64,000 nucleotides of DNA, from assembly GCA_022711115.1 (NCBI GenBank), contig JAKLFP010000003.1, positions 9,199 through 73,198 of the forward strand. Direction: 5' to 3'. Each line of letters opens with the position of its first letter. Position 1 is the first letter of the stretch. Of the stretch, positions 41,368 through 64,000 are shown piece after piece. The notes beneath the pieces are model-generated. The model worked only from the letters and a program-made list of their open reading frames with translations, was not told the origin of the DNA and did no database searches. A program made the position numbers and the translations under genes. The DNA is from Candidatus Omnitrophota bacterium. GTDB taxonomy: Bacteria; Omnitrophota; Omnitrophia; Omnitrophales; Aquincolibacteriaceae.

Positions 41368-42216
41368 TCAGAGCCTATGACGTCTAAACCTTCTTGCATT
41401 TAGTAGCGCGAGAGGATCCGGATATTGTCTTCCGGTATGAGCGGCAGCGTTCTCACGCTGGAGCCGAATATATTCCGCGATATAGCAAAGATTCCCTTGA
41501 GCAATAAGTAAGTCAGGGGCCGTAGAAGCTAATTTTACAAGTTCTTCCCGCCTCACTCCGGCTACTACAGCAAACCCTTCCACACGATTGGGAAATAGAC
41601 ACCACAGAGCGGAACGTCTCGCATCTTCCTGAGGAACAGAATCATCCCTACCCTGAAAATCAAAATAAACTGGAACTGAACATGTAAGCCAGTTTGCAGG
41701 GAAACATTCATCAGGAAACGACGAAAGAAAAAAGCCCTTAACTGTTTGTCTGAGACTCCTAAAACCTTTACAAAATCGCGGGTAGTCCCTTATGAGACGC
41801 GTACCATCAACAACCCATAACATATTTTTATAGAAACGTTCGCGGCTTTGCATTTCATCGGGCTGGATTGCGGAACGTTGAAATTCTATTACCAATCCAC
41901 TAGTTGTTTTAATGTCTGCTTTATGTATTTCTCCGGATGCAGGATCTCTGTGGATTATTTCTTGGCAATTTTCAGGAAAACGATTTTTCCATGCTCTGTG
42001 CCATTCCGTTTCATTCTCCCACCACGAATCACATGAAATTTTACTTTTGTGCGCCCAATGCTTAATTCTTTCTTTCCCGCATTTAGCAATCATAACGCTT
42101 TGGCAAATGTCACAAGTACCTCGCAGTCCTTGCTGAGCTTCCGCCTTAACTCCGTTTATTTGAGCGAATTTCATAGTCCGGTCCTTGTAAGCAATTTTCC
42201 AAACGCATTTCCACAA
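41368..42216 (-). CDS. CoiA-like competence-family protein (nuclease-like)
   Basis: CDIC...AKCG...HWAH...C..WWENETEWH matches the CoiA N-terminal pattern. The real start is probably MKFAQING. Confidence 0.55.
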   Translation of the reverse strand: MWKCVWKIAYKDRTMKFAQINGVKAEAQQGLRGTCDICQSVMIAKCGKERIKHWAHKSKISCDSWWENETEWHRAWKNRFPENCQEIIHRDPASGEIHKADIKTTSGLVIEFQRSAIQPDEMQSRERFYKNMLWVVDGTRLIRDYPRFCKGFRSLRQTVKGFFLSSFPDECFPANWLTCSVPVYFDFQGRDDSVPQEDARRSALWCLFPNRVEGFAVVAGVRREELVKLASTAPDLLIAQGNLCYIAEYIRLQRENAAAHTGRQYPDPLALLNARRFRRHRL

Positions 42217-42265
42217 ATTGGATGCAAATATTACTTTTCGGGCAGACGATCAAAAACGGACACCA

Positions 42266-42853
42266 TCATGAGACATTTCGATTTTTTAGCCACAGATCAA
42301 AAACATATCCAGTCGCAACCCGAAATTGAGAAACATCCGATTCGAAACAATAGCACACCGTTTTATCCCCTGCGCTTCCGAGAAAATTTCTAATATCCGT
42401 TAAAAATTGCTCGGCTGTTTGCAAAAAAAAGCTTAGTTTTTCAACCGCAGGGATCCAAAAAGAACTTTCGCCTGGCTTCTCAGGCTTTAAATGGCCAATT
42501 CTTTTATTTCGAAAATCTGACAGATTCTTATAATCTTGGCCGCTTACTAACTCGTTCATGCCAACAAAAAGTTTATCTGCTTCAGGAATATCCAGAAAAC
42601 GATTCTTAAAAATATTCAAATAATCTCCATATATTTTACAAATAGTCAAAACCATCATATCCCGAGCCACGCGCTGCAAATTAGCCCAAAAAGTTTTACC
42701 GCATCCTCCATTGTTCACCTTACTCGCATTTTCCCCAATGTGTCCCCAAAGAAACAAAGTCATTCGAAAATCATAAATAAGCGCATGGAAATGCTGACAC
42801 AAATCATCCATGGTTTCCGAATCAATATTTTTATTTCCAAATTTAACTTTCAT
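42266..42853 (-). CDS. HEPN-like (Rx4-6H motif) Abi-type protein, tentative
   Basis: 195 aa, helical, with an RNKRIGH motif near the C-terminal third. No other recognisable domain. Confidence 0.3.
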   Translation of the reverse strand: MKVKFGNKNIDSETMDDLCQHFHALIYDFRMTLFLWGHIGENASKVNNGGCGKTFWANLQRVARDMMVLTICKIYGDYLNIFKNRFLDIPEADKLFVGMNELVSGQDYKNLSDFRNKRIGHLKPEKPGESSFWIPAVEKLSFFLQTAEQFLTDIRNFLGSAGDKTVCYCFESDVSQFRVATGYVFDLWLKNRNVS

Positions 42854-42987
42854 AGATGCCTTTCTTTAAACAAAATTCGCATTCTGCATAAATTACGACT
42901 CTCAGAAATTCGGTCCAGCCCCCTCCCAGAGGACTTAGCATCTAGCTGACGAGCGCATAGGAGGTTGGGACATTCACGATTTTATAT

Positions 42988-43341
42988 TCATCCCTTTTTA
43001 TATTGTTTCTTAATCCTTGGTTCCCGTGCCCGATCGTTTGCATTTTGTTTTTGGGTCCACTTTGGTGCCCAAACTACCCGGTTATTTGTAATGGAGTAAT
43101 GAGACTGGCAAGGCAGGTTCCAGTTTCCTATCGAGGGATAGAGCGAAACGGTTTTGCCATCAAAAATCAGTTTCCAGCCCGCCGGTGAAAGCGGCGTTAC
43201 GACCTCCCGTCCACAGCCACAACAACACTTGTGCAGGACGGTGCAATAGGTGTACGAAATATAAAGCGTTCGCTCCTTGAGTTCATTGGGGATGAACTCC
43301 ACGAATTCATGGCTGAGAACGATCTCATGCGCCATAAACAT
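42988..43341 (-). CDS. Cys-rich DUF6527-like zinc-binding protein (ubiquitin-like-system accessory)
   Basis: HKCCCGCGREVVTPLSPAGW...SLYPSIGNW...CQSHY. Coupled by a 17-nt overlap to the E1 gene. Confidence 0.45.
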   Translation of the reverse strand: MFMAHEIVLSHEFVEFIPNELKERTLYISYTYCTVLHKCCCGCGREVVTPLSPAGWKLIFDGKTVSLYPSIGNWNLPCQSHYSITNNRVVWAPKWTQKQNANDRAREPRIKKQYKKG

Positions 43342-44524
43342 CCTCCGATATTAGTTGATTCGATCTAATCGTATAGGCGCAATAATGCTCTTTGGTCACA
43401 TCGTCAAAATATCCGCAAAGCTTCTTCCATTTGATAACTGCAAGAGCCGCGTTCAATGCGCTTAGTTCTGAAATTTGGACATTTTGGGAATATTCATTGG
43501 GCGCTTCGCCATCGGATAAAGCAATGCGACTGTTGATGTGATCACGCTTGTCTACGGTGCTGGCCGTAACCGTGACAATCCCTGCAAGTGTATTGTTTTC
43601 TCCAAGTTGGATTCCCATCCCTACGTCAATGAATGGAATACTCCATTCTTGCAGTCGCTCGATAATTAACCGCTTGCTTATGCCTTTATCGATGCAAATG
43701 AAGACAAAATTCATATTCTTAAGTTGCTCGATCGTATATTCATCAACGAAGAAGTCGTGAGGAATAATCCTTTTTCGCATCTGCGAATATATGCTTGCAA
43801 GATAATGGGCTTTCCGATGTTTTTTGCCAAGTTCGTCTCTTGATGGCGCTCCGGGGCATCTAAACGCATTGTGGTTCAAGAAAAGATCGTGGTCAAAAAG
43901 ATGAATCTCCTCGACGGGCGTCTTGGCAACAAAGTCAAGCACGTAACTGCCTGTTGCGCCAGCACCTACGATGGCGATCTTCTGCCCCTCCAACTTTTGA
44001 TTGGCTAGGACAATGCCCGCTTTGGTGGGTGCGGTATCGAGGTAGTTGAAGATTGAATCATCCTCTTCATCGGGCACAACCACGGGATTAGTATAGGCCG
44101 TAACGGTTGGATCGATCGCCTGTGCCGGACTACAAACAATTGCGATATAAGTTTTTATCTTCTCGTAATAATCCACATATCTGCCAGCTGTCGGACCCGT
44201 TGTGGGTTTCCTCGAAATTTGATGGTTGGGGGCAAGACCATCACCCAGAGATTGGTTGACGTTTTGAGTTACTCCGGGCAAGACAGAGCCGTGCTCGTCA
44301 CAAGGCGGGTCACCTACAAAAAAAATGACATGCGACGTCGGGGCAACGGTGACTTCTCCAGCGAGGTCAAGCACGGATGCAATAATTCCGCGCTTGACCT
44401 CCTTGGCGGCGTTCACATAAGGAACGCCGCAGACGAATAAGTACTTCGACTTGCTGGAGATATCTAAACCTTCAGCACGAAGTCTGCTCAGATCGGTATT
44501 AAGACTGACCAGTTTCTGTGACAT
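43325..44524 (-). CDS. ThiF/MoeB-family E1-like adenylyltransferase with an N-terminal roughly 190-aa E2-like extension
   Basis: Rossmann GxGxxG in IAIVGAGATGSYVLDFV, with downstream NHNAFRCPG and RIIPHDF. The N-terminal domain has H...C spacing (SHVIFFVGDPPC) compatible with a UBC-like active site. Confidence 0.65.
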   Translation of the reverse strand: MSQKLVSLNTDLSRLRAEGLDISSKSKYLFVCGVPYVNAAKEVKRGIIASVLDLAGEVTVAPTSHVIFFVGDPPCDEHGSVLPGVTQNVNQSLGDGLAPNHQISRKPTTGPTAGRYVDYYEKIKTYIAIVCSPAQAIDPTVTAYTNPVVVPDEEDDSIFNYLDTAPTKAGIVLANQKLEGQKIAIVGAGATGSYVLDFVAKTPVEEIHLFDHDLFLNHNAFRCPGAPSRDELGKKHRKAHYLASIYSQMRKRIIPHDFFVDEYTIEQLKNMNFVFICIDKGISKRLIIERLQEWSIPFIDVGMGIQLGENNTLAGIVTVTASTVDKRDHINSRIALSDGEAPNEYSQNVQISELSALNAALAVIKWKKLCGYFDDVTKEHYCAYTIRSNQLISEDVYGA

Positions 44525-44729
44525 CGAACTTCATTCCGTTTTGGAGCTGAACGCTTTTACCAGGGGTGAGGCTCCCCCCCTGATTGCCGTGACTCCAGGT
44601 AACCGTAAAAAATGCGTTCGGTGGAACGGGATTAAAGGCTAACGCCACAACCCGCTCGAAGGTGATGGATGGTCCTGGTTCCTTTTTGGGCCGCCCGTTG
44701 ACGATGATGTTGAATTCATTGTGATTCAT
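44499..44729 (-). CDS. small beta-grasp/ubiquitin-like candidate protein (76 aa) ending ...TGQS
   Basis: Its size and position as the first gene of the E1 operon suggest this. A strong SD (aggagga) precedes it, and it overlaps the E1 start. Confidence 0.35.
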   Translation of the reverse strand: MNHNEFNIIVNGRPKKEPGPSITFERVVALAFNPVPPNAFFTVTWSHGNQGGSLTPGKSVQLQNGMKFDVTETGQS

Positions 44730-44826
44730 ATGTCCTCCTGTTCTATTAGCGACCTTTTTCTTAATCTTTCTGGCACAACCGCGCCGCTTTTAACGGTTAC
44801 GCTTTCAGAATAAATTTTATCAAGCC

Positions 44827-44875
44827 CGCTAAGTTTGTCAAGCAAATAAAATTAGCGCGCTTGACATCCTTAGCG
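44827..44875. promoter_or_regulatory. 15/17-bp inverted repeat operator candidate (cgctaagtttgtcaagc ... gcttgacatccttagcg) overlapping a TTGACA-N17-TATCCT promoter
   Basis: Read from the divergent intergenic region between the Ubl operon and the HTH/ImmA pair. Confidence 0.45.
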
Positions 44876-44903
44876 TTCAGCGATATCCTATGGCTGTCAG
44901 GAG

Positions 44904-45254
44904 GTGATAACCATGCCAGAAAAAGACCAGAATCTAGGCCAATATCTTAAAGAACTCCGGATAGTAAAAAACCTTAGCCTGCGCGATGTTGAGAAAGCCA
45001 CTAACAATTCCGTGTCAAACGCGTATTTGAGTCAATTAGAGTCAGGGAAAATTTCCAAACCCTCCCCTCACATATTAGAAAGTCTCGCAAAAGTCTATGA
45101 AGTGCATTACGAAGACCTTATGGCTGTAGCAGGTTATATGCGTTCATCCAAAACAAAAAAAAGTGGCGTCGCATTTTTTAACCAGCATGATCTCAGCGCC
45201 GAAGAAAAAAAGAAGTTGCTAGATTATTTGCAGTTTCTTAGAAAACAGAAATAA
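44904..45254 (+). CDS. XRE-family HTH transcriptional regulator (CapH-like)
   Basis: LGQYLKELRIVKNLSLRDVEKATNNSVSNAYLSQLESGK, preceded by an SD (aggaggtg). Confidence 0.75.
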   Translation: MITMPEKDQNLGQYLKELRIVKNLSLRDVEKATNNSVSNAYLSQLESGKISKPSPHILESLAKVYEVHYEDLMAVAGYMRSSKTKKSGVAFFNQHDLSAEEKKKLLDYLQFLRKQK

Positions 45255-46174
45255 TGAAAAAAGATGATTCAAGCCTCCATCCGGAAGAACTGAATAATGT
45301 GCGAAAACATGCTCGGTTGCTTCTTAATCAAGCAGATGCCCTTAATCAGCTTCCCACCCCCGTTGACCGATTAGTCGCAACGGCAAAGCTTACCGTTAAT
45401 CGCGAAGTTTCCCTTAGCCAAGACGAAAGTCTCCTGTCAAGATTCAGCACCAACATAGGTAAGATCGCTCGACCTCATCTTCATGGTGTTAAAAAGCTTC
45501 TCGGCCTGCTTCATGTACCCTCCGGTGAGATTTGGATTGATCAATCTCAACACGAAAGCAAAAAAAAGTTTATTAAACTTCATGAGACTGGTCATGGATT
45601 TATACCTCATCAGAAGAAAATGTATGAATTTATGGAGGATGGCATGCTCGAACTCGCTCCGGAAATCGAAGACCAGTTTGAACGAGAAGCGAATAATTTT
45701 GCATCCGAAACACTATTCCAGTTAGATAAATATGAAAAAATGGCCGCGGATTACGAAATCTCAATAAAAACGCCTTTGGATTTGTCGAAAACATTTGGGG
45801 CGTCAGTATATTCAAGTATGCGACGATACATCCAAACTCATTTTGCTCCATTAGCCCTAGGCGTATACGACTTACCAAATCGTTCGCAAGGGACTAATTT
45901 GTTTTCCTTAAGAAGAGCGGCGATGTATTCTCCTTCCTTCTTCAAAGAATTCGGTGCGGTTCATTTTCCAGCAACATGCACCGAATCCGATTATTTAGGA
46001 TCGATATTAATGAGGGCAAAACTCCAGACTCATCATATTTGTTCGCTTAGAGACCTGAATGGGGACATCTACGAATGCGCTGTCCATGTTTTTTCCAATT
46101 CCTATGAAAAATTTGCAATGCTCATTCCTCTCAAAAAATCTTCGAAGAAACTATTGATTCATTGCTTAAATTAA
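45254..46174 (+). CDS. ImmA/IrrE-family zinc metallopeptidase (CapP-like)
   Basis: HExxH in LHETGHGFI. It abuts the HTH gene, the typical pairing. Confidence 0.7.
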   Translation: MKKDDSSLHPEELNNVRKHARLLLNQADALNQLPTPVDRLVATAKLTVNREVSLSQDESLLSRFSTNIGKIARPHLHGVKKLLGLLHVPSGEIWIDQSQHESKKKFIKLHETGHGFIPHQKKMYEFMEDGMLELAPEIEDQFEREANNFASETLFQLDKYEKMAADYEISIKTPLDLSKTFGASVYSSMRRYIQTHFAPLALGVYDLPNRSQGTNLFSLRRAAMYSPSFFKEFGAVHFPATCTESDYLGSILMRAKLQTHHICSLRDLNGDIYECAVHVFSNSYEKFAMLIPLKKSSKKLLIHCLN

Positions 46175-52631: not shown

Positions 52632-53663
52632 TTATGACGGCTTTTGAGCAATAACATACTGGATGATGCCCTGTTGTTCGAACTCTGTTCTTAGATTTTC
52701 TTTATTGAAACCTGCCGCAAGAAAAATTCGCTTAAACTCGTCCTCGCTTCGATAAATTAACTGCCATTCTCCGACCCATTCTAAAAAATAAAATGAAGGG
52801 TTTTGATACTTTTCCCCGAAGTTTGCAATAAATAGCAAGCCGTTCGGTTTTAGGAGCCCTTTTAACGCATCGATTAGTCTTTGAGCCAAACGTTCATCCA
52901 GATAATCAAAAAGCCCTAGCGAAAATATCATGTCGTATCGTTCTTTCGGGATGGCTTTTTTAAAAGCAATTCGCACGGCGTTTTCTTTGTGGAAATTTAC
53001 GAATTTCAAGTTGTTTCCCAAAATATTTTTTGCATATTCAATGGCATTCTCATCTTGGTCATAGCAATCGATGAAAAGATTGCGATGACCGGCAGGGATT
53101 TCTTCGAGCATCTCGCTGATATCTCGGCAAGGGCCAGAAGCTAGGTCCATTATTTTCAAAGTCTTGCCCTCATTTGTTTTTACTAAAGACCCAATGAATT
53201 TCTTAATGTCTTCTTTTCGATTTCGAATAGCAAAAGCCGCCGCTGACATTTGGGAATAATTATCAAAGAGGCGGGCGAAGCCCGTTGTTTTAGGGTCGTT
53301 CCGATATATATCATCTATGATTTTAAAATCGCCTGCATAGCCATACGGCTTCTTAAGACTCCAACAAATATGCTCACCATGCAAAAAATCTGCCCGAAGA
53401 TGATTGACGAAAATTCTTTTTAGTTTATAGACGCTCGCCTCGTCGCCTTTCGCCAGTCGTTCTTGTTCAAAAAGCATTAAGGCTCGAAAGATGGCATTTA
53501 TTTCCTGATTAAAAAGGCTCTGGTATTTTCCCCAATCATTGGGATTGGCATCCAAATGAGTTTTTATTTCTCTGGCGACTTCACGATATTTTTTAATGCG
53601 CTTTCTCAATGATGTCTCCTGATTCTTAAGGAGAGTGTCGATTTTGGTCATTTGTCCACTCAC
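52632..53663 (-). CDS. SAM-dependent methyltransferase-like protein
   Basis: IMDLASGPCRD (motif I-like) and a DxxxGxF-like downstream region. It sits between the HK and a REC gene. Confidence 0.45.
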   Translation of the reverse strand: MSGQMTKIDTLLKNQETSLRKRIKKYREVAREIKTHLDANPNDWGKYQSLFNQEINAIFRALMLFEQERLAKGDEASVYKLKRIFVNHLRADFLHGEHICWSLKKPYGYAGDFKIIDDIYRNDPKTTGFARLFDNYSQMSAAAFAIRNRKEDIKKFIGSLVKTNEGKTLKIMDLASGPCRDISEMLEEIPAGHRNLFIDCYDQDENAIEYAKNILGNNLKFVNFHKENAVRIAFKKAIPKERYDMIFSLGLFDYLDERLAQRLIDALKGLLKPNGLLFIANFGEKYQNPSFYFLEWVGEWQLIYRSEDEFKRIFLAAGFNKENLRTEFEQQGIIQYVIAQKPS

Positions 53664-54049
53664 GCTCCTAGAGCCTTCTTCACTTCTTCCAAAAACTGGA
53701 TAAGATCAAAAGGCTTTAAAATATATGCTTTAGGTTTTAATGTTTTTGCGTCTATCTCAGCCTGTGGGTCGGCGTATCCGGTCATAAAAATTCTCGGAAC
53801 TTGTTTAACTCCACGTTTCATCATTACATCCAAAATTTTTCTTACTGTTTCAATTCCATCGATTCCCGGCATACGGATATCGCTGATGATGAGGTCGAAA
53901 TCAACGGCCTCGGCCATGGCCGTCGCTTCATCACAACGTTTCGCTACAAGCACCTCGTAACCACTTTTTTCAAGCGCAAGCACAAGGCTTTTTGTAATGA
54001 GTTCTTCATCGTCAATTACGAGGATTTGTTTTTTCATCTTCCGCTCCAT
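53660..54049 (-). CDS. single-domain response regulator
   Basis: ILVIDDEE...DIRMPG...LKP. Confidence 0.7.
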   Translation of the reverse strand: MERKMKKQILVIDDEELITKSLVLALEKSGYEVLVAKRCDEATAMAEAVDFDLIISDIRMPGIDGIETVRKILDVMMKRGVKQVPRIFMTGYADPQAEIDAKTLKPKAYILKPFDLIQFLEEVKKALGA

Positions 54050-54540
54050 GCTCTTTCAGTTCACGCTCAAATAACCATTTGAACTGTTTCAAATAATACT
54101 CTTTGAAAGCGTCTTTCAAACGTTTTTTGTCTTTTTCAATCTTGCGAATTATCCAAACCCCTAGGACCCCACAAACAATAACGTCTAGCCAGAAAAATAC
54201 CACCCAAAAAGGACTGTTCGGTCCTATGTCCATAGACACCCCCACATTTAACCTTTTTAAGTTATCGGACTTTTGGAAATATCCTAGAGGGGAATTCCCA
54301 GGAAATGCGATAAAGATGATGGTTCGAATTTTGGGTTATTCCACACCCGATTCGGATCATTGCGTAAGAGACGCACTCAATAAGAGTCCATAAAAACCGT
54401 TTCGAAAAGTAAGAGCCGTATTCATTTAGACGTAACGTCTATTTGTCTATATTAGGACCGGTAAGATCGCCGGGAAATAAGATCGAATCGATTAAGTCCT
54501 TGGAATTTAAGAACTCGTCTTGGAACGGTGCCCGGTATTT

Positions 54541-55542
54541 TTAATGAGCGTTTTCATTGCGCGATAATGGAACCCTTTCGGAAAGCACGAATTTTCTCCG
54601 AAGCCGTGCACGGGGATGATATTGGGCATGAACCTGTTGAATGTGCGCAGGCAGAATTCTTGTGTAAATTTGCGTGCTTGTAATACTGCTGTGACCCAGA
54701 AGTTCCTGGATATAGCGGATATCTGCTCCATTTTGAAGCATTCCGATCGCACAGGCATGACGAAGGCTGTGGGCTTTCAGCCGCTTCCCTTTCCGTGCGC
54801 CTCCCATCACGAGAATCAATTCCTTATATTTCAGTTTATTCCCCCACATGCTCAGAAAAAGCTTTTTCTCGCCCGTGATGGCCGCCTGATGTTTCCGGAC
54901 ATCCTCGATGTAAGCTTTAAGCGATTCGGTCGCTTTTCTCCCGAACGGCACGACCCTGTCTTTGTTGCCCTTCCCGTTACGCACCAGGATGGTTTTCTTC
55001 CGAAAATCCACGTCGTAAATATCAAGGTTCAAAAGCTCATTAGCGCGGATGCCCGTGGAATAAAAGAGTTCCAAGATAGCTTTGCGCCTTTTCCCGACCA
55101 TCGACGCCGTTTCCAAGCCGTCCAGTATCTTTTGTATTTCACCAGTAGCCGGAATATCTTGGGGTAGCGTTTTGCCGCCCTTCGGGAGTTCCAGCGCATC
55201 CGCAGGGTTGAAAAGATAACGCTTCGTTTCCGTCAGATACCGGAAATAACAGCGTATCGCAACAATTCTGCCCTTTAGGGTCCAATACTTATATTTCTTT
55301 TCGTCCTTGAGATACCTCGCATACCGTTGAAACGCCTCCCTGTCGATCTTCTTTATCCTTTTTTCCTTCAAAAAATTATAGAAATAAACGATCCTTCTCC
55401 GGACATCCACGACCGTACGGGGACTGAATCCTCGTTTTGCCATGTGCTGCACATATTCTTCGATATACTTTTTCATTTCACGTTTTCCTTTCGCGAGTTT
55501 CCGTCGAATTGAACCGAGAATCGGGGTGTCGTTCCATGCCAC
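54541..55542 (-). CDS. tyrosine recombinase/integrase (subfamily 2, copy 1)
   Basis: R...HSLRHACA...LLGHSSITSTQIYT with catalytic Tyr. The real start is probably MKKYIEEY at about 55476. Confidence 0.75.
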   Translation of the reverse strand: MAWNDTPILGSIRRKLAKGKREMKKYIEEYVQHMAKRGFSPRTVVDVRRRIVYFYNFLKEKRIKKIDREAFQRYARYLKDEKKYKYWTLKGRIVAIRCYFRYLTETKRYLFNPADALELPKGGKTLPQDIPATGEIQKILDGLETASMVGKRRKAILELFYSTGIRANELLNLDIYDVDFRKKTILVRNGKGNKDRVVPFGRKATESLKAYIEDVRKHQAAITGEKKLFLSMWGNKLKYKELILVMGGARKGKRLKAHSLRHACAIGMLQNGADIRYIQELLGHSSITSTQIYTRILPAHIQQVHAQYHPRARLRRKFVLSERVPLSRNENAH

Positions 55543-56725
55543 CGGAAGAAATGCGCTTGGTCTTAAGGAGTGCCCGAGGATGATATTGAGCGTGAACTTC
55601 TTGAATGTGCGTCGGAAGGATTCTCGTATAAATCTGCGTGCTTGTAATGCTGCTGTGGCCCAAAAGTTCCTGGATATAGCGGATATCGGCCCCGTTTTTA
55701 AGCATTCCGATCGCGCACGCGTGCCTCAAACTATGGGCTTTCAGCCGCTTACCGTTTCTCCTGCGCGGCATGACACGAATCAATTCGTTATACCGCAGCC
55801 GATGTCCCCACATACTCAAGAAAAGTTTCGTCTCGCCCGTCGCTTCGGCATGATATTTCCTGGCATTTTCGATGTAATCCTTGAGCGCCACCGCCGCATT
55901 CCTGCCGAAAGGAACCACCCTGTCTTTATTGCCTTTACCGTTACGAACGAATAGGGTTCTCTTTCCGAAGTCGATGTCATAAATATCGAGATTCAGAAGC
56001 TCTTTGGCGCGGATTCCCGTGGAGTACAAAAGTTCGAGGATCGCCTTCCGCCGTTTATTGACCCTCCCTGTCGTATCGATAGCATCCAGCAATGCTACGA
56101 TTTCTCCGGGGGCGGGAATGTCCTGTGACAGCGCTTCCGGCCTTTTTGGAAGTTCGAGAACAGCCGCCGGATTGAAAAGATAACGCTTCGCCTCCGTCAA
56201 ATAGCGGAAATACGACCGGACCGGCAGAATCCGGTCTTTGATCGTCGCGTATTTGAATCGCCTCCCGCTCATAAGATAATCCCCGTAGATCTGGAATGTG
56301 TGCCGGTTGATTTTCGAGATCCTTCTTTTTTTCAGAAAGTTAAAGAAATACTGGATGCTGCGTCTCGAGTTTTGAACCGTCGCCGGACTCAGCCCGCGCT
56401 TGTTCATGGAGTGCAGATATTCTTCGAGGTATTTTTTCATGCTTCGTCCGTTCTTTCCCGGGGATGCGTCCTCCGATGCACTTTCCTGAGATCCGAGATC
56501 TCCACATGAGTGTAGATTTGGGTGGTATCGAGTTTTTTGTGCCCGAGCATTTCCTGAATCACGCGGATCGGAGCGCCGTTCCTCAGCATATGGGTCGCGG
56601 TCGTGTGCCGGATCATGTGGGCCGAGGTATGGCGCTTGAAGCCCGCTCGCTTCGCATACTTTTGCACGATGGGGGCGATATTCATGTTCTGCATTTTCGT
56701 CCCCCGCAAACTCAGAAACAGCCAC
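55478..56725 (-). CDS. tyrosine recombinase/integrase (subfamily 2, copy 2)
   Basis: Same motifs. The real start is probably MKKYLEEY at about 56437, abutting the next gene. Confidence 0.75.
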   Translation of the reverse strand: MAVSEFAGDENAEHEYRPHRAKVCEASGLQAPYLGPHDPAHDRDPYAEERRSDPRDSGNARAQKTRYHPNLHSCGDLGSQESASEDASPGKNGRSMKKYLEEYLHSMNKRGLSPATVQNSRRSIQYFFNFLKKRRISKINRHTFQIYGDYLMSGRRFKYATIKDRILPVRSYFRYLTEAKRYLFNPAAVLELPKRPEALSQDIPAPGEIVALLDAIDTTGRVNKRRKAILELLYSTGIRAKELLNLDIYDIDFGKRTLFVRNGKGNKDRVVPFGRNAAVALKDYIENARKYHAEATGETKLFLSMWGHRLRYNELIRVMPRRRNGKRLKAHSLRHACAIGMLKNGADIRYIQELLGHSSITSTQIYTRILPTHIQEVHAQYHPRALLKTKRISSGGMERHPDSRFNSTETRERKT

Positions 56726-57372
56726 GAAAGTTTATCCGCGTTCTTGAACCGATTCCTTCCATACTCGATATATTCGTCGAGATATCCCATGGCAATTTCT
56801 CCGATAGGCACTACTCGGTCTTTATTTCCTTTTCCCGCTTTTACCGAGATCGTTCCGTACTCTTTCTGAACGTCATAGAGCGTAAGATTGCAGAGCTCCC
56901 CAGAGCGGATCGCAGTCGTGTACAAAAGTTCGAGAATGGCCTTATCCCGAAGTCCTAACTTAGAATCGATTTCCACGGCATTCAGAAGCTGCTTGATTTC
57001 TTCTTCCTTGAAAATGTCGCGAGGAAGCCGTTCGGGTTTTTTAGGAAGTTCGATCTTCGTGGTCGGATCAAAAAAGAGTATCCCTTCTCTTTCGAGCCAT
57101 TTGAAAAATCCTTTGAGGGCAACCAATCTGTGCCCCTGGCTCACCAGGCAAAGCCCTCTTTTTTCGTTATAGAGATAGCCCTGATACCGGGCTATCACCT
57201 GGCGATCCACCTGTTTGAGATCATCGAGGCCTTCGTCCTCCTGGAGATACCGCAGAAATTCCGTGTTGTACCGCCGGTACAAAACGAGAGTGGTCGGAGC
57301 ATACCCCTTCTGCCCCAAACACTGGCTATACCGCTCGATCAAAAGCCCCGCTTGGTTGAGTTTGGTATTCAT
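56437..57372 (-). CDS. tyrosine recombinase, XerC/D-like (subfamily 1, copy 1)
   Basis: RSGELCNL...HMIRHTTATHML...LGHKKLDTTQIYT. Confidence 0.75.
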   Translation of the reverse strand: MNTKLNQAGLLIERYSQCLGQKGYAPTTLVLYRRYNTEFLRYLQEDEGLDDLKQVDRQVIARYQGYLYNEKRGLCLVSQGHRLVALKGFFKWLEREGILFFDPTTKIELPKKPERLPRDIFKEEEIKQLLNAVEIDSKLGLRDKAILELLYTTAIRSGELCNLTLYDVQKEYGTISVKAGKGNKDRVVPIGEIAMGYLDEYIEYGRNRFKNADKLSWLFLSLRGTKMQNMNIAPIVQKYAKRAGFKRHTSAHMIRHTTATHMLRNGAPIRVIQEMLGHKKLDTTQIYTHVEISDLRKVHRRTHPRERTDEA

Positions 57373-58307
57373 GACGCAGCCAATCCCTTCTCCCGTGGAT
57401 GCGTTCTTTGATGCACCTTCTTAAGATCCGAGATTTCCACTTGAGTATAGATCTGAGTAGTCTCAAGCTTCCTATGCCCGAGCATTTCCTGAATCACGCG
57501 GATCGGAGCGCCGTTACGAAGCATATGCGTCGCAGTCGTGTGGCGAATCATATGCGCCGTCGCATACCGTTTGAGCCCGGCCCGTTCCGTGTATTTCTGG
57601 ACGATCGGCGCGATATTGCGATTCTCCATTTGCGTCCCCCGGTAAGTCACGAACAGCCATGGAAGAGTATCCGCGTTGGGAAAGTTCTTCCGTCCGTGTT
57701 CGAGAAACTCCTCGACGTAGCCCATGGCAACTTCGCCGACCGGCACGACGCGGTCTTTGTTCCCTTTGCCGGCTTTTACCGAGATCGTTCCGTATTCTTT
57801 CTGAACGTCGTAGAGCGTAAGATTGCAGAGTTCGCCGCTGCGGATCGCCGTCGTATAAAGCAGTTCGAGAATTGCCTTGTCCCGCAATCCCAATTTCGTA
57901 TCGATATCGACCGCGTTAAGAATTCTGGAGATTTCTTCCACGTTGAAAATGTCGTGCGGAAGCTGATCGGGTTTTCTGGGAAGCTCGATCTTCGTGGTCG
58001 GATCATAAAAAAGAATGCCTTCCCGCTCGAACCATCTGAAAAGATTCCTGAGGGCCACCAGCCGGAGACTCTGACTCCTTAATCCGAGCCCCCGCTCTTC
58101 GGTATAAAGATAACTTTGAAAACGGGAGATCACCTGCCGGTCCACCTGCTTGAGATCATCGAGTTTTTCGTCCTCCTGGAGATATTTCAGGAATTCATTG
58201 TTGTACTGGCGATAAAGACGCAGCGTGCCCGATGCGTACCCCTTCTGGCCCCGGTCCTGAATATAGCGCTCCATAAGGAGCGCTGCCCGGTCAAGCCGTG
58301 TATCCAT
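57369..58307 (-). CDS. tyrosine recombinase, XerC/D-like (subfamily 1, copy 2)
   Basis: About 75% identical to the previous gene. The starts and stops overlap by 4 nt. Confidence 0.75.
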   Translation of the reverse strand: MDTRLDRAALLMERYIQDRGQKGYASGTLRLYRQYNNEFLKYLQEDEKLDDLKQVDRQVISRFQSYLYTEERGLGLRSQSLRLVALRNLFRWFEREGILFYDPTTKIELPRKPDQLPHDIFNVEEISRILNAVDIDTKLGLRDKAILELLYTTAIRSGELCNLTLYDVQKEYGTISVKAGKGNKDRVVPVGEVAMGYVEEFLEHGRKNFPNADTLPWLFVTYRGTQMENRNIAPIVQKYTERAGLKRYATAHMIRHTTATHMLRNGAPIRVIQEMLGHRKLETTQIYTQVEISDLKKVHQRTHPREKGLAAS

Positions 58308-59142
58308 CGACCGTCCTTTCGGTTCGAGGCGCGGACGCGGCCATGCGAATCATGTGCCCCGAGATATAACTTTTGAACCCGGCCAGCCTCGCATACCGTT
58401 GGATAACCCCGGAAACATGCGAAAGCCCCATCCTTGTTCCTTCTTCTCTCAAAAAGAGCCAAGGCAGCTTATCCGCGTCCGGAAATTTTTCGCGGCAGGA
58501 TTCGAGATATTGTTTGATACGGTCCGCTGTTTCTTTGCTTACGGTCACTACCCGATTATCTATTTTTCTCTGGCTCCTGATCGAAACCGATTGGTTGTCT
58601 TCCCGGACATCACCAAGCGTAAGATTGCAGATTTCTCCCGCCCGGATGGAATACTTCGAAAGAAGTTCGAGGATCGTTTTATCCCTCAGTCCTCTTTTTG
58701 TTACCGTTTCTACGGAATCGACGATTTTTTCGATGTCTCCGTTGGCAAGATTGGTTCGCGGAAGCGTTGCCGGCCTTTCGGGAAGCTCCACGGAACCCAC
58801 GGACCCAGGGAAACGAACGCCTCTGCGTTCGAGCCACATCAAGAAATCCTGGATCGCCAGAAATCGCGCGCCGGTATCGTTGTTCGCTTTTCTTTGACTC
58901 GCACGAAGATAACTTCGATACCGCGAAATTACGCGGCGGTCGACCTTGGCAAGATTCCGCAGCTTTTCCCTGGTCCGGAGATATCCCAGAAAATCAGCGT
59001 AATAACGGCGGGAACGATTCAGAGCTCCCGAAGCGTAACGTCCCCAGCTTCGGGCCTGGAGATACTGTTTAATCAACTGTTCCGCCTGATCGATTTTCGT
59101 GTTTATCGAGAATGAATTACCCATTTTTTTCATGCCCTCCAT
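58291..59142 (-). pseudogene. truncated/degenerate tyrosine recombinase (subfamily 1-like) lacking the C-terminal His/Tyr catalytic segment
   Basis: Conserved KVDRRVISRYRSYL and LRDKTILELL segments are present. It ends at ...GHMIRMAAS before the LGH...Y region, and its 3' end is overlapped by the next integrase start. Confidence 0.55.
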
Positions 59143-59290
59143 AGAGCTTTTTCAAAAAACTCGGGAAATTGCGGCTAACTTATTTATTCTAAACAACTTA
59201 ACCACCGCCAATAGCCGCCAAATACTTCAAATACTCTCTCTACAACCCGATCCAAATAGTGCCCAAATACTTCCAACTACTTTCCGGTCG

Positions 59291-61555
59291 TCAAAGGCCT
59301 TCGGCATCCACAAGGCACAAATCCTTTTCGGTCCAAGGCGTCACGCCGTCCCATGCGAGCTTATAGGCGCATTTCTGTCCGCGTTTACCGCCAGCCACTG
59401 GATAAAGATATTCGAGCTCTACAAGTTCCCGCATCTGCATATGAATTTGGTAGTGGCTCCACCCCGACGTTTTCCGGATCTCTTTTCTCGTGAAAATCAC
59501 GTCGTCCCCGGAGATCCTCGATGCTTGCGCGTTCTTCTTTACCATTTCGCCGATAATTTGAATCAGACGTCTCCCCTGCGGACTGAGTTCATCGAGGCCT
59601 TTCAAAAGGAACTCGCGGGCCAAATCGTTGGCGATCCGGATATCGGTTTTGCCCACCTCGATATATTTGAAACTTTCGTTGCCGTCCTTCCCCATTTTGA
59701 TCTCTTTTTGATACTGTCTGAGAAGAGCAATGGTCCTGATAAGGCTGTGGTATTTCTTTTGCTCGCGCCTCGCCCGAAGAAGGCTGTCCAGAAACCTGAG
59801 CTTCTCCGCGTAAGGATTCACCACTTCGAGAGGCTCGATCAGACGCTGCATGTTCTGATGAAGCCTCCGGATTTTTTCGTATTTCCGCTGTTCAAGAACC
59901 CCTTCCAAGGTTTCCATGCGCCGCTGGACTTCGAGAATTTTCCTGGTCTGCGCCTGGCTTTCATCCACCGATAGCACGAGAAACCGATTGTAGGTTTCGT
60001 AGTTGATCTCGGGATTCGTCGTCGTGATCATCATGCTAACGGGTCCCTGCACTTTATGGCTCACGGCCTTGAGTTTCCCCGTGGCTTCGTCGCGGATCGT
60101 GGTCATGGAAGTCAGGTGGTTGGTACTCAAAAGATGCCGGATGGAGTAGCCGGCCCCGGTGATCCCCTGTTCTTCCTCCACGGCGATCAGCTTATGAGCC
60201 AGCGTCTGTTGTCCTTGATAAAAAAGCGATTGATCGGTAAGACGGGTCACTTTGAGGTAATCTTCCGGAGGCGTGAAGGAAAGCACCCGGTCCTGGAGCT
60301 CCGTCTTTCCCGCTCCGCTCTGCGAAACGATGAACAATGCGAGAGGCTGCCTGAGTTTCCTCGAAAGGGATACGAGATATCCCAAAAGAAGGTTTTTTTC
60401 TTCGCCAACGTAAGCGCAGGCCTTGGCGTCGTCGACGATCTTTTGAACGAGAGTTTCGGATTTGAGAAATCCGAGCGCTTCCGTTCGTTCTTTCTCAGTC
60501 ATGATCTCCTTTTCCTCCGGAGGCTCGTCTCCGAGCATTTTAAGCTGAATGGTTTCGAGTTTTTCGACGATCTCCTTCATGTCCAGATTCGTCCGGCTTT
60601 CTTCCAGTTTCATGACCTTCTTAACCTGACGCGCAAACCCCGCCCGCGCCCGTGAACTGTAGAGATCGAAAGTATCGAGATGGTAGCTCTCGCTGTTCTG
60701 CACCTTGATGGTGGCCTTGAGACTGCCGACTCTCCTGACATTGAGTCCCTTGATCCGGTAAGTCAGATCGCCCCGGATGAAATAAATGGCGGATTCTTCC
60801 TGAATGACTTTGAAAGGAATGCGGTTTTTCACCGCTTCCGCCGGTTCGGATTTCACGATTTCGATCTTCGCCGCTTTCTCGATCAGGGTCTGAATGTTTC
60901 CGCCGCCGCTCAAAAAACGGGAAATGCTCCCTGCTTTCTCGGGAAGGCTGACTTTGAAGATCTCCAGATCCTTTGCCGCGACTGGATCCATCAATTCGCG
61001 GATTTTTCCTTCGTCCCAAAAGAAGTAGACTCTTTTTAAGGTCGATTCCTCGAAAATGCTCCTGTCCGCCGACGGCGGCGATTCTCCGCAGAACGCGACC
61101 GTTTCATGAAGCCCCGCGTTGATCAGACTTAATGCTTCGAACGGATTCGGCACTACGTACAAAGTGTCCCTGCCGGTGGCGAAAGTGGCGTTAAAAACCG
61201 AATTCCCGCGCTCTGGCAGATACAAATGAGTTCCCTGATAAATATAGTGGGCGTAGAGGCCAAGCGGAGTCCCGTTCTCTTTGGTAATAGGGATAACGAT
61301 GAAATTCCTGAGCAGCTCCTTTCCCTTTTTGTCCAATATCCCAAGACTGACGAGTTCACCGCGCACATCGGGTTCCTTCGGCAAAGAACCGTCGCAGAAT
61401 CCCACGCGATACCGTTGCAGGATCTCTCCGTTCAGAAGACCGTTTCGCCTCAGGAATTCCTGCGCCTTCTGGCTTTCCTTCAGGACATCCTGGTAATGCA
61501 GCGCTGCGCGCTCGAGGATTTTTCCGTTCACTTCATTTTGATCCATTCGAAACAC
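59291..61555 (-). CDS. P4/D5-type primase-helicase (SF3 NTPase) of integrative elements
   Basis: C-terminal Walker A SQSGAGKT, with Walker B/motif C in an SF3 arrangement. A large N-terminal primase-like region precedes it. Confidence 0.6.
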   Translation of the reverse strand: MFRMDQNEVNGKILERAALHYQDVLKESQKAQEFLRRNGLLNGEILQRYRVGFCDGSLPKEPDVRGELVSLGILDKKGKELLRNFIVIPITKENGTPLGLYAHYIYQGTHLYLPERGNSVFNATFATGRDTLYVVPNPFEALSLINAGLHETVAFCGESPPSADRSIFEESTLKRVYFFWDEGKIRELMDPVAAKDLEIFKVSLPEKAGSISRFLSGGGNIQTLIEKAAKIEIVKSEPAEAVKNRIPFKVIQEESAIYFIRGDLTYRIKGLNVRRVGSLKATIKVQNSESYHLDTFDLYSSRARAGFARQVKKVMKLEESRTNLDMKEIVEKLETIQLKMLGDEPPEEKEIMTEKERTEALGFLKSETLVQKIVDDAKACAYVGEEKNLLLGYLVSLSRKLRQPLALFIVSQSGAGKTELQDRVLSFTPPEDYLKVTRLTDQSLFYQGQQTLAHKLIAVEEEQGITGAGYSIRHLLSTNHLTSMTTIRDEATGKLKAVSHKVQGPVSMMITTTNPEINYETYNRFLVLSVDESQAQTRKILEVQRRMETLEGVLEQRKYEKIRRLHQNMQRLIEPLEVVNPYAEKLRFLDSLLRARREQKKYHSLIRTIALLRQYQKEIKMGKDGNESFKYIEVGKTDIRIANDLAREFLLKGLDELSPQGRRLIQIIGEMVKKNAQASRISGDDVIFTRKEIRKTSGWSHYQIHMQMRELVELEYLYPVAGGKRGQKCAYKLAWDGVTPWTEKDLCLVDAEGL

Positions 61556-61659
61556 CTCCGTTCCTCAAATTTCCGCTTTGCGGATACGCCTTCCCAGGCT
61601 AAAATAAAAATGGCCACAGACACTAAAGGCATGTGCCTTGAACCGTCTCCAATTCGGCC

Positions 61660-61699
61660 AGCCGCTGACTGCCCTCGAAAAGCTTCAGCGGCTTTTTTA
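61660..61699 (+). terminator. hairpin agccgctga-N16-tcagcggct followed by T6 (intrinsic terminator-like on + strand)
   Basis: Read directly. Confidence 0.35.
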
Positions 61700-61705
61700 T
61701 GGTTT

Positions 61706-61733
61706 ATATGTGTTAGATTTTTCTAACACATAT
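61706..61733. promoter_or_regulatory. perfect 12-bp inverted repeat atatgtgttaga-tttt-tctaacacatat between the alpA-like gene and the primase
   Basis: Read directly. Not followed by a U-tract on either strand, so more likely a protein-binding site than a terminator. Confidence 0.4.
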
Positions 61734-61754
61734 TAGCAAAAAATTTTTTGCCGT

Positions 61755-61976
61755 TCAAGACTTTTTTCTATAGCGCTTTGGGATCTTATCCATATCACGG
61801 CTCTTGAGGTACTTTTTGACAGCCTGGTCCGTCGTATACCAGGTAGAACCAATTTGAAATCCCTCAAGACGTTTCCGCTCGATTGCGCGCCGTAAAGACG
61901 CCCATGTAAATCCGTGTTTTTGATATCGGTCGACCGCCTCAGGCAGCCTTAACCGGTCTGGAGGAAATCTCTTCAT
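61755..61976 (-). CDS. AlpA/excisionase-family HTH protein
   Basis: 73 aa with RLPEAVDRYQKHGFTWASLRRAIERKRLEGFQIGSTWY. Confidence 0.6.
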   Translation of the reverse strand: MKRFPPDRLRLPEAVDRYQKHGFTWASLRRAIERKRLEGFQIGSTWYTTDQAVKKYLKSRDMDKIPKRYRKKS

Positions 61977-62083
61977 GGAATAATCTCTGGTTCACCTGTC
62001 AACTTTTCATATTCTACAAAGGGATTCCTTTTTTCGCTACTTGTTTTCATCCTCCAAAATCAATCCGACGAGAGAAAGCTGTT

Positions 62084-62714: not shown

Positions 62715-63269
62715 TTAAAAAATAGACGCGATTGCTCCCAAAGTTCCGTATTTGTATTTCGCTATAATCTTTTTCAGCTCCGGATCTTCGTCCAATCGCA
62801 TGAGGGCGTCTTTCACGGCCCCTTTTGCAAGATCGTCCGCGCTTTCCTCCAGGACGGCGAAAGCATTTTGATTCGCGTGATGGCCGTCGACGATTTTCCG
62901 GTAGATTTCGGCTCCGTCCTTATCGAGCGCCCTCACTTCAAGCGTCAAATCGGCTTCGAGAGGTTTAAGAAGCGCATCCTCCGAGAAAATCCGGAACTTT
63001 CCGACCCGCAGAAATACGCTCTCCTCTTTTTTGCTTTTTTCCGCAGCCAGCTCGATAGTTTTTGACTTTTCTGCGCGGATCCGTTCAAGACGGAGGCCCG
63101 CCTTCGCATCGATGTAATAAATCAGATAATGCGCGACCAGTTCGGATAGATCCGTCTTCGCGGGCTTGCTTTCGATGGCTGCGGGCCCTGCCCCGCCCGT
63201 CTGTCCAGCAGGCGCGGACACGCAACCCGACGCCGTCAGAAGAATAAGCGCAAAAAGGATGATTCTCAT
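62715..63269 (-). CDS. lipoprotein of unknown function
   Basis: Lipobox LLTASGC. It overlaps the upstream gene by 4 nt. Confidence 0.45.
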   Translation of the reverse strand: MRIILFALILLTASGCVSAPAGQTGGAGPAAIESKPAKTDLSELVAHYLIYYIDAKAGLRLERIRAEKSKTIELAAEKSKKEESVFLRVGKFRIFSEDALLKPLEADLTLEVRALDKDGAEIYRKIVDGHHANQNAFAVLEESADDLAKGAVKDALMRLDEDPELKKIIAKYKYGTLGAIASIF

Positions 63270-64000
63270 GCCGCGGCCTCCCCGGCTGTTTCCTTCCGTT
63301 CGATGAGGCGGGATGCCTGATGCCGCAGAAAAAGATCCCTGCCGCGTTCAAGCTCCCTCTGAAGCTCTTCGGGTTTTGGGAGTTCGAGGAGATATTTCGA
63401 AACGAAAATCTTATTGCTCAAACCGCCCGTCGCGTACCGGACGGTCGCGTTGTTTTTATCCGAACACAGAATGATGCCGAACGGCTCATTCTTTGCCCTC
63501 GGCAAAATATTGTCTTTGACCCAGTTGACGTAGAAATTGATTTGGCCGGCGTGGGAATGCGTGAATTTATCGAGCTTCAGCTCGACGACGATATACCGGC
63601 TTAAAGCAATATTGAAGAGCAACAAATCGATGCGGTATTCATCGCTTCCGACCATGAATCTTTTCTGGCGCGCGACAAAAGCAAATCCTCTTCCAAGTTC
63701 AAGCAAGAAACTTTCGATATGCCGGATCAACGCATCTTCAAGATCCGACTCCGAATATTCGTTTTTAAGGCCGAGGAAATCCAGGACATAAGAATCCTTG
63801 ACCTCATCCTCGGGCCTCGCCAAAACCGCATGCTCATTTGCTTTGGCGATCACAATTTCCCGGCGCTTGGAAAGCGCCGTTCTTTCATAGAGCAGCGCAT
63901 TGATCTCGCGTTCCAAGTGCCTGGATGACCAATGTCCCTGAATGCTCAATCTTTCATAAAAAGTCCTTTTCTCCGCTTTCTCGATACGCATGAGAAAACG
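63266..64000 (-). CDS. YhcG/DUF1016-type PDDEXK nuclease-family protein, probably N-terminally incomplete at the window edge
   Basis: C-terminal VVELKLDKFTHSHAGQINFY (E-x-K core), with the upstream D in IDLLLFN. There is no stop between the first Met (63991) and the window end. Confidence 0.5.
   Translation of the reverse strand, partial: RFLMRIEKAEKRTFYERLSIQGHWSSRHLEREINALLYERTALSKRREIVIAKANEHAVLARPEDEVKDSYVLDFLGLKNEYSESDLEDALIRHIESFLLELGRGFAFVARQKRFMVGSDEYRIDLLLFNIALSRYIVVELKLDKFTHSHAGQINFYVNWVKDNILPRAKNEPFGIILCSDKNNATVRYATGGLSNKIFVSKYLLELPKPEELQRELERGRDLFLRHQASRLIERKETAGEAAA

Follow-up and report, generated by a model that had tools for sequence, protein, structure and literature searches.

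Adjacent genes for two Xer-like tyrosine recombinases belong to the backbone of ICEPmu1 and ICEMh1, integrative and conjugative elements (ICEs) of Pasteurellaceae in which the pair is thought to act jointly in integration and excision (PMC6861422). GInt and SE elements encode two catalytic recombinases (one of them large), a recombinase-fold protein without the RHRY residues and a coiled-coil auxiliary protein (PMC10214605); the fold protein, known as GinC or Tfp, lacks the catalytic motif yet is required (PMC10214605, PMC5385486). The subject of the present work is an array of five tyrosine-recombinase genes in Candidatus Omnitrophota, located within a 64-kb stretch of DNA that was analysed as a whole (contig JAKLFP010000003.1; hereafter the window). 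It is a tandem-expanded Xer-type operon of two recombinase types, X and Y, and probably the integration/excision module of a rare, small, plasmid-like integrated element of about 7.7 kb. The genes, designated A to E, are the following (lengths in amino acids, aa):

58291-59142, minus strand: recombinase A, 283 aa, divergent X-type, C-terminally truncated and catalytically dead
57369-58307, minus strand: recombinase B, 312 aa, intact X-type (XerD-like), nearest to the ancestral X
56437-57372, minus strand: recombinase C, 311 aa, intact X-type, paralogue of B
55478-56440, minus strand: recombinase D, 320 aa, ATG at 56440, intact Y-type, derived paralogue
54541-55476, minus strand: recombinase E, 311 aa, ATG at 55476, intact Y-type, nearest to the ancestral Y

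The array resembles XerC and XerD in combining one core-binding and one catalytic domain within about 300 aa, in its full R-K-HxxR-H-Y active site and in the Xer-like C-terminus (...TQIYT...HPR) seen in the alignment of the window proteins; XerC/XerD also provide the best sequence and structure matches, and two distinct paralogous types are encoded together, suggesting a heteromer. Unlike XerC and XerD, it scores below the equivalog cut-offs, comprises five copies rather than two, forms an operon behind a plasmid-type primase gene in a rare element family, and adjoins a site with seven CTTA repeats and no obvious dif plan. With ICEPmu1 and ICEMh1 the X-Y pair shares the presence of two adjacent Xer-like recombinases in a mobile-element backbone; however, those elements are large and conjugative, reside at tRNA-Leu and have 11-13-bp direct repeats, whereas the window module has no conjugation genes, no tRNA and no detected attachment-site (att) repeats, and its pair has been expanded to five. 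As in GInt (GinA/B/C/D) and SE (IntA/Tfp/IntB/Srap), a multi-gene recombinase operon lies at one end of an island, with A, a dead paralogue, as a putative analogue of GinC/Tfp. The array differs from both in having neither a large recombinase nor a GinD/Srap-like coiled-coil gene in 54.0-62.1 kb, in that A arose recently as a truncated copy of the catalytic gene beside it and is not a separate ancient family, and in its host, which belongs to Omnitrophota and not to Proteobacteria. The integron site attI carries the direct repeats DR1 and DR2. TnpI/IRS of Tn4430 (PMC2847244) and IntI/attI likewise place a core and direct-repeat motifs beside the recombinase gene, in the manner of the CTTA motifs and core found here; those systems have a single recombinase and unrelated motif sequences, and binding to CTTA is only predicted in the present case. 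Adjacent Xer-like pairs on mobile elements (by annotation) and multi-recombinase operons with a dead subunit being already known, the array is not categorically new. In the open-access literature, no description was found of five recent Xer-type paralogues in one array with preserved intermediates, or of a family of Omnitrophota elements combining a primase, an Xer pair and a CTTA site.

Organization and family of the five recombinases

An earlier note on this DNA, made from the letters alone, had reported five abutting tyrosine-recombinase genes on the minus strand at 54541-59142, and all five open reading frames (ORFs) are indeed present there, co-oriented and tightly packed with practically no intergenic space. 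Each protein matches Pfam Phage_integrase (E 3e-19 to 1e-46), and B-E also match SAM-like N-terminal domains. The B/C and C/D junctions are ATGA overlaps of 4 nucleotides (nt) and D/E is separated by a 1-nt gap, as the note had described, whereas A and B overlap by 17 nt and not by 4; with overlaps of 4-17 nt or a 1-nt gap throughout, the five genes are translationally coupled. The proposed division into three genes of one subfamily and two of another is borne out insofar as A, B and C are X-type and D and E are Y-type, but A is only 40% identical to B and C at the aa level and thus far more distant than implied. The two middle genes, B and C, estimated at about 75% identity, measure 76.5%; D and E are 69% identical, the B/C and D/E groups 33-40%, and A shares just 27-28% with D and E.

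A perfectly identical block that the note had seen in B and C is real in the proteins and longer than given, extending over 52 aa (KLGLRDK...KDRVVP) that span the Arg-I to Lys active-site region, but the underlying DNA is not identical, 25/156 nt being different, mostly at third positions. Because third-position identity is the same within the block as outside it (0.60 vs 0.56, p=0.75), the block is a product of purifying selection acting on this part of the active site; recent gene conversion is ruled out by the same equality together with the 25 nucleotide differences. The same five genes occur in three independent public assemblies (ENA, JGI and NCBI GCA_035390585.1, a Candidatus Omnitrophota metagenome-assembled genome), and a colinear five-gene array is found in three more assemblies (L004-L006) of a lineage with 78% DNA identity, so that an assembly artefact does not explain the array.

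The note had interpreted the locus as an expanded, composite or nested recombinase-in-trio (RIT) element, while remarking that five genes do not fit the RIT pattern. In RITs, RitA carries two sequential core-binding domains and RitC an extra C-terminal helix (Smyshlyaev et al., PMC8138268), the terminal inverted repeats are 34 bp long and the catalytic tyrosine is present in all three Rit proteins (PMC10214605), consecutive ORFs share short overlaps of 4-8 bp, and 4-nt ATGA overlaps are described (PMC3414803). For comparison, a genuine trio (L013 36086-39260) of megaplasmid pHG1, which is cited as a RIT-rich plasmid (PMC3414803), served as RIT reference, and E. coli xerC and xerD as Xer reference. 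Like a RIT, the array consists of unidirectional tyrosine-recombinase genes of distinct subfamilies that overlap, in part by 4-nt ATGA junctions (PMC3414803), and its proteins fall into three identity groups (A; B/C; D/E). Yet four of the five RIT features examined fail, the short ORF overlaps alone being shared and not RIT-specific.

By blastp, the window proteins score 130-184 bits (29-41% identity) against E. coli XerC/XerD and 58-87 bits against pHG1 RitA/B/C, a two- to three-fold excess that holds for every copy; B reaches 174 bits with E. coli XerD, and C is roughly as good a match to XerD as XerC is. Placement in a neighbour-joining (NJ) tree, a check that the note had suggested, agrees: all copies group with XerC/XerD and away from RitA, RitB and RitC, so that none has RIT-family affinity. 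None of the five is a RitA of about 400 aa with a double core-binding domain, all being 283-320 aa long with a single SAM-like N-terminal domain, compared with 410-412 aa for RitA of pHG1. Terminal inverted repeats, also proposed for the array, were found neither around 54.3-59.3 kb nor around 54.0-62.2 kb by a search that recovers those of the pHG1 RIT (35789-35836 / 39247-39297). Moreover, the ancestral gene number is two and not three, A has no catalytic tyrosine, which every Rit protein possesses (PMC10214605), and the operon is linked to a primase gene. RIT membership is ruled out by the comparison with pHG1 RitA/B/C, the domain architecture, the missing terminal repeats and the absence of the tyrosine from A, and a RIT origin, simple, composite or nested, is hardly credible.

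XerC and XerD are the best NCBIfam models, at 208-262 bits and under the equivalog cut-offs of 330-335 (TIGR02224/TIGR02225), and XerD (1A0P) is the nearest solved structure to C (E=2.6e-50). Core-binding and catalytic domains without an arm-binding domain and a complete R-K-H-R-H/W-Y set are found in B, C, D and E, whereas A keeps the fold without the last two catalytic residues. Judged by these sequence comparisons, all five are Xer-type simple tyrosine recombinases. The Tn554-family layout (TnpA, TnpB of >600 aa and TnpC) is not seen, all copies being about 300 aa long with no TnpC-like gene; nor is that of an integron (IntI with its characteristic insertion, attI and cassettes bounded by attC), the integron-integrase models giving 113 bits against a cut-off of 265 and no repeated attC-like site lying downstream.

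History and fate of the copies

The array follows a gene for a Rep-like primase (described below), and every readable relative of Rep, to about 33% identity, is likewise followed by exactly two Xer-like recombinases, X then Y (L009, L010, L011, L018/19, L021/22 and L023); in most of these two-gene loci, a divergent XRE-type repressor gene and a small ORF lie ahead of Rep. Expanded arrays are confined to the immediate relatives of the window. L004, colinear with it at 78% DNA identity, has five genes, and L007 has a 120-aa fragment and three genes (fragment, B, C and E). In L024 (2136-6765), Rep is missing: a recombinase fragment of 214 aa, divergent in sequence, is accompanied by an AAA_14/DUF4143 ATPase gene that has been inserted, by a B-type gene disrupted at its N-terminus and by an E-type gene that is intact (L024_328), and the CTTA/core site that follows is intact as well. 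Here the module is degenerating where it stands, with the site and the Y gene still preserved. Copy number thus varies between 2, 3 and 5 across loci, with truncated copies in several (A, L007_1f and the L024 fragments).

That every readable Rep relative carries exactly two recombinases shows one X and one Y to be the ancestral state, of which the window array is a lineage-specific tandem expansion. The NJ tree groups the proteins by position and not by genome (A/L004_1; B/L004_2/L007_2; C/L004_3/L007_3; D/L004_4; E/L004_5/L007_4). Further orthologues are the L024 counterpart of B and, for E, L024_328; C and L004_3 are 87% identical, and D has L004_4 as its only partner. The note's alternative, that the five genes stem from separately integrated elements, is contradicted by this phylogeny, which is that of an X-Y operon duplicated in tandem, its copies having positional orthologues in the sister lineages. 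The simplest history is one of serial single-gene tandem duplications, in which duplication of X (B, C and the older, divergent A) preceded the split of the three lineages, and the duplication of Y (D, E) either came later or has been lost in L007.

All catalytic elements (Arg-I, the β-hairpin Lys, HxxR, His-II and the Tyr nucleophile) are complete in B, C, D and E and in all of their orthologues. As the note had observed, the first gene has lost its catalytic C-terminus where the next one starts: A ends just after HxxR, its last 6 codons overlapping the start of B. Some 60 final residues are lost, including His-II and Tyr, and the catalytic Lys position is occupied by Arg. Its sole orthologue, L004_1 (289 aa, 49% aa identity), likewise ends after the HxxR helix and has no His-II, Tyr or catalytic Lys, so that A-type proteins are known from two lineages only.

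Between the window and L004, the ratio of nonsynonymous to synonymous substitution rates (dN/dS) is 0.07 for Rep, 0.05 for B, 0.04 for C, 0.07 for E, 0.19 for D and 0.19 for A, rough values given that dS is saturated for most genes. B, C, D and E thus keep their complete active sites under strong purifying selection. In A, the ORF has remained open over 283-289 codons in both orthologues despite an estimated ~280 missense substitutions between them, where an unconstrained ORF should have acquired about 17 nonsense changes (P ~6e-8 for chance upkeep). The AlphaFold2 (AF2) model of A (mean pLDDT 83) consists of a four-helix core-binding domain and a catalytic domain up to the HxxR helix, followed by a disordered tail, with XerA and XerD as best PDB matches. 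Kept open and confidently modelled, A is a maintained, non-catalytic recombinase-fold protein.

B differs from C, and D from E, at a set of fixed positions that are conserved across lineages. B holds the ancestral residue at 7 of the 12 fixed B/C differences and C is the more derived of the two, while D, more strongly, is derived at nearly all fixed D/E positions and E keeps the state of the Y genes in two-gene loci. As a separate observation, D and its L004 orthologue (55478-56440 vs L004 7747-8710) have a dS of 0.36, compared with 0.84-1.9 for the neighbouring genes, which could reflect a recent exchange of the segment between lineages or an unusual constraint on its DNA.

The CTTA site, the upstream module and its surroundings

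In addition to the recombinase genes, the locus includes these features:

54357-54517, minus strand: conserved non-coding site of about 160 bp, directly 3' of the last recombinase gene, E
59205-59280, no strand assigned: iteron-like direct repeats between Rep and recombinase A, two 22-nt units with phased TTTGG motifs
59291-61555, minus strand: Rep-like protein, 754 aa, with a DnaG-type primase N-terminus, the P-loop SQSGAGKT and PF27228 (MTBMA_p00010_2nd)
61700-61735, no strand assigned: perfect 12-nt palindrome, ATATGTGTTAGA-AAAA-TCTAACACATAT, between the helix-turn-helix (HTH) gene and Rep
61755-61976, minus strand: small HTH protein, 73 aa, first gene of the conserved module and candidate excisionase/AlpA-like regulator

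Read on the gene strand, the site consists of four CTTA motifs spaced by 14-16 bp (about -75, -60, -46 and -31), the core AGACGTTACGTC, given as AGACGTTACGWC at 54429-54440 and palindromic as GWCGTWACGWC, and three more CTTA, the last of which is contained in a small outer hairpin at 54357-54375 (the TGCGTCTCTTACGCA region). It has the same position and register in 7/7 close loci, always immediately after the last recombinase gene. CTTA density reaches 5-7 per 180 nt, against 0.5-0.8 expected, with one orientation throughout, and no other cluster of at least six CTTA exists in the window. Every locus has a single core, and with a sequence model of the site, R1, each site scores 66-117 bits. 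The window and L004 can be aligned without a break from Rep across the five genes as far as 54357, 8 nt past the last CTTA, where their homology ends. These properties suggest a candidate recombination site with accessory repeats, in which no clear 11-6-11 dif architecture can be discerned. Housekeeping XerC/XerD, the recombinases of chromosome-dimer resolution, work under FtsK activation at a 28-bp dif site located at the replication terminus.

A second copy, half-copy or inverted partner of the site was not found by motif clustering, core search, the sequence model with filters on or off, or a search for the terminal hairpin. A weak R1 match at 16008-16078 (10 bits) corresponds to the ribosome-binding site and start of a lipoprotein gene, has no CTTA motifs and was judged a chance hit. 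Interpretation of the site as a structured RNA was rejected, since the region matches no Rfam family, yields no consensus structure of significance and has fold z-scores of -2.2 to +0.9; the small hairpins around two of the CTTA motifs have different stems in different loci, and covariation was not established.

Upstream of the recombinases, the neighbouring primase reported by the earlier note is upheld by the match of a profile of five Rep orthologues to the catalytic core of E. coli DnaG (E=2e-4) and by the Zn_ribbon_DnaG, DNAG_N and Toprim domains carried by Rep relatives at 30-48% identity. Taken alone, the window sequences of Rep and the small HTH protein give no matches, or only sub-threshold ones, with Pfam, NCBIfam and PHROG. 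The Rep family is small (32 clusters in 5.8 billion proteins), and scans of genomes and metagenomes with the Rep profile return one locus each; no relative was found among IMG/VR viral contigs. An AlpA neighbour, also claimed by the note, is weakly supported: the window protein has no Pfam match, while its orthologues reach HTH_17 below threshold (E 6.5e-5 and 0.06). Orthologues of the HTH gene lie upstream of Rep in L004 (59% aa identity) and L007 (49%).

Around the palindrome at 61700-61735, which may be an operator or a terminator, the DNA is 76-77% conserved with L004 and L007. An XRE/HTH_19 gene occupies this position in L007, L009, L010, L018 and L021; in L007 the divergent XRE repressor separates the HTH gene from Rep, and in L009-L011, L018 and L021 it is located immediately upstream of Rep or of a small ORF that comes before Rep. 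No XRE/HTH_19 gene is present in the corresponding part of the window (61556-61754), where a spacer of about 200 bp remains, with the 12-nt palindrome and a GC hairpin. The iteron-like architecture between Rep and the recombinases is kept in L004, L007 and L009 with a lineage-specific sequence, and L010 and L011 have repeated CTTGCG motifs instead; the repeats are a candidate origin or operator. Taken together, the backbone of the element is made of a small HTH gene (joined in some loci by a divergent XRE repressor), a DnaG-type primase/Rep, iteron-like repeats, X, Y and the site of about 160 bp. The packed array of paralogues beside primase and small HTH genes is in keeping with the note's view that it is part of a mobile-element-like module.

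Integrative elements of P4- or IME-like layout have their integrase(s), a small HTH gene of excisionase type and a primase/Rep grouped at one end and are bounded by att repeats. In the window, HTH, primase/Rep and recombinase genes are found together, with a sharp right border at 54357, where the conserved module ends; neither an att-like repeat nor a second site was found anywhere in the window. Att-like direct repeats were sought between 54.3 kb, 61.5-64 kb and 19.5-23.5 kb, yielding a single 13-mer at chance expectation, and alignments of the left and right junctions in the window, L004 and L007 stay at shuffle level. Neither a tRNA nor an empty site was found. The module sits in contigs of 68-300 kb with chromosomal-type flanks. 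As there is no switch of GC skew or gene strand at Rep, and none of the relatives is a circular contig that would represent a free plasmid form, the module looks integrated, and Rep does not seem to replicate the molecule in which it resides.

The upstream flank (NTP_transferase, a 184-aa gene and CBM_11) is syntenic in the window, L004 and L007/L012. A gene of the YhcG/DUF1016 nuclease family (63266-64000, continuing in L001 2929-4107) lies between NTP_transferase and the 184-aa gene and is missing at exactly that place in L004, representing an insertion/deletion polymorphism in this flank. Downstream, a block of response-regulator, ketosynthase and acyl carrier protein (ACP) genes is common to L004, L007, L010 and L020 (about 67% nt identity), irrespective of whether the locus is a two-gene or an expanded one; the window has instead a response regulator, a methyltransferase, a seven-transmembrane (7TM)/GAF kinase and two response regulators, with 24-44% protein identity to counterparts. 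A stand-alone CheY-like receiver gene (53660-54049 in the window) is among the first genes past the site in most of L004, L007, L010, L020 and L024, and the genes behind it often encode ketosynthase/ACP or 7TM histidine kinases, similar in theme but only 24-44% identical between loci.

Further downstream, the low-GC stretch of 22-54 kb is a defence and mobile island without counterpart in the related loci examined. That the array serves as mobility module for all of the 22-62 kb island, a possibility raised by the note, is conceivable. Its 32048-46174 part (GC 0.38-0.46) encodes a Type I restriction-modification system (HsdR 35244-38399, HsdS-like 38284-39465, HsdM 39407-40987), a 1014-aa SMC_N/AAA protein, a ThiF+DUF6791 protein (43325-44524) with BubE, a CoiA_N protein and, paired with an HTH protein, an M78 peptidase of the ImmA/IrrE type. 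Another HTH_17 gene (excisionase family), at 41021-41176, just upstream of hsdM, is 54% identical to an HTH_17 gene downstream of the L004 site and may be a trace of another integrated element. At 22230-25994, two Y1_Tnp (PF01797) genes (23368-23955 and 25343-25930) are each enclosed by inverted repeats of about 44 nt (TGTCTATTTCAACCTGTCCCCTCGGTACCCGGTACCGTTCTA) and tandemly duplicated with their neighbouring genes, an arrangement that resembles RAYT/REP ("REPtron") or IS200-like units. A 64-nt intergenic repeat (78% identity) is found at 18346-18409 and 20135-20198; its first 13 nt (CTTTTCATATTCT) recur at 62003-62015, in the promoter region of the small HTH gene, and this chance-level match could be a shared promoter or 5'-untranslated element.

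Integration, resolution or turnover of duplicates as possible explanations

If the array belongs to an integration/excision module, X and Y would act like a XerC/XerD heterotetramer, each type binding one half of the core, and the complex would operate at the single conserved site beside the operon. The seven direct CTTA would be accessory sites for the core-binding domains of the recombinases or for the small HTH (HTH_17-like) protein, and the reaction would integrate or excise an element of about 7.7 kb (about 54.36-62.05 kb) with the CTTA site as its right end. Extra catalytic copies would most likely confer altered or added subunit or site specificity, or dosage, while A would be a non-catalytic architectural or regulatory subunit, or else a gene en route to loss.

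Several observations weigh against this probable explanation. No second or half site, att-like direct repeat or empty site was found, so that integration via the CTTA site is putative, and the element has a defined border on the right only. Both arms of the site, left and right of the core, are intact in 7/7 loci, as expected of a resolution site of the dif, cer or IRS kind, and the site fits an att junction only if crossover takes place at the outermost hairpin. Since the proteins are simple recombinases without an arm-binding domain, the candidate CTTA binders, proposed by analogy, are putative. The number of CTTA motifs (5-8) does not correlate with that of recombinase genes; variable copy number and truncated copies would also be expected from neutral birth-and-death of tandem duplicates; and the tree, which is distance-based only, has weak deep nodes (35-59% support), just as the dN/dS values are coarse.

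Of the other explanations, the one with most to commend it, though still only a tentative possibility, is that recombinases and site resolve multimers or cointegrates of a Rep-driven replicon, like XerCD/cer, XerS/difSL, Cre/loxP or TnpI/IRS, with the CTTA motifs imposing resolution selectivity. Each locus has exactly one intact site, which adjoins the recombinase genes, is conserved in both arms and lies near Rep and the iteron-like repeats; TnpI (PMC2847244) and IntI are simple recombinases with extra direct-repeat sites beside the core, and XerS shows genetic linkage to its dif-like site (PMC2731167). Such a role is difficult to reconcile with the chromosomal-type setting of the module in 68-300 kb contigs, where Rep seems not to replicate the molecule, with the want of a circular related contig, and with the small HTH_17-like gene, typical of excision control, that belongs to the module; resolution alone would also hardly account for long-lasting purifying selection on the recombinases and Rep if the copy is permanently integrated. 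A more ambitious and rather doubtful proposal is that the five proteins form a new multi-subunit Xer-derived machine, in which two X and two Y subunits would enter combinatorial heterotetramers and A would occupy some of the seven CTTA repeats, providing several target specificities or built-in directionality control without an arm-binding integrase, a convergent counterpart of the four-protein GInt/SE systems that would have arisen by recent duplication.

At the opposite extreme, only the ancestral pair B and E would matter, with C, D and A being by-products of unequal crossing-over in a birth-and-death process and having no new function. Array size does differ between close lineages (two genes, a fragment plus three, five, and a fragment plus a disrupted copy), the first position is truncated in three of them, and A, whose type is restricted to two lineages, evolves 4-5 times faster than the rest. 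This is nevertheless improbable in view of C orthologues in three lineages and D orthologues in two, all of them catalytically complete and with dN/dS of 0.04-0.19 (dS being saturated), of a five-gene order kept at 78% nt identity, of the A ORF staying open through all its missense substitutions, and of the lineage-conserved B/C and D/E differences. Multi-recombinase loci are known for phase-variable systems, and with a Type I restriction-modification system at 35-41 kb and response-regulator and kinase genes always following the site, the recombinases might be imagined as DNA invertases or shufflon-type switches that vary these restriction or downstream signalling genes. But no inverted repeats of the site or core exist anywhere in the window, the only hsdS-like gene is 15 kb away, and across all loci the recombinases are linked to Rep and not to any cargo, making a switch of this kind very improbable.

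In summary, the joint action of several tyrosine recombinases on a single element is an unresolved question, for which this locus and its relatives offer a natural series of 2 -> 3 -> 5 genes with clear orthology, a dead copy soon after its origin and one delimited candidate site, making subunit requirements and site recognition directly testable with few constructs. If the extra copies prove redundant, the locus exemplifies tandem gene birth-and-death in an integrase operon; if instead the array is a combinatorial machine, intermediate stages of its assembly (2, 3 and 5 genes) would still be observable in nature. The locus also documents a family of small elements combining a primase with an Xer pair in Omnitrophota, where few mobile elements have been characterised.

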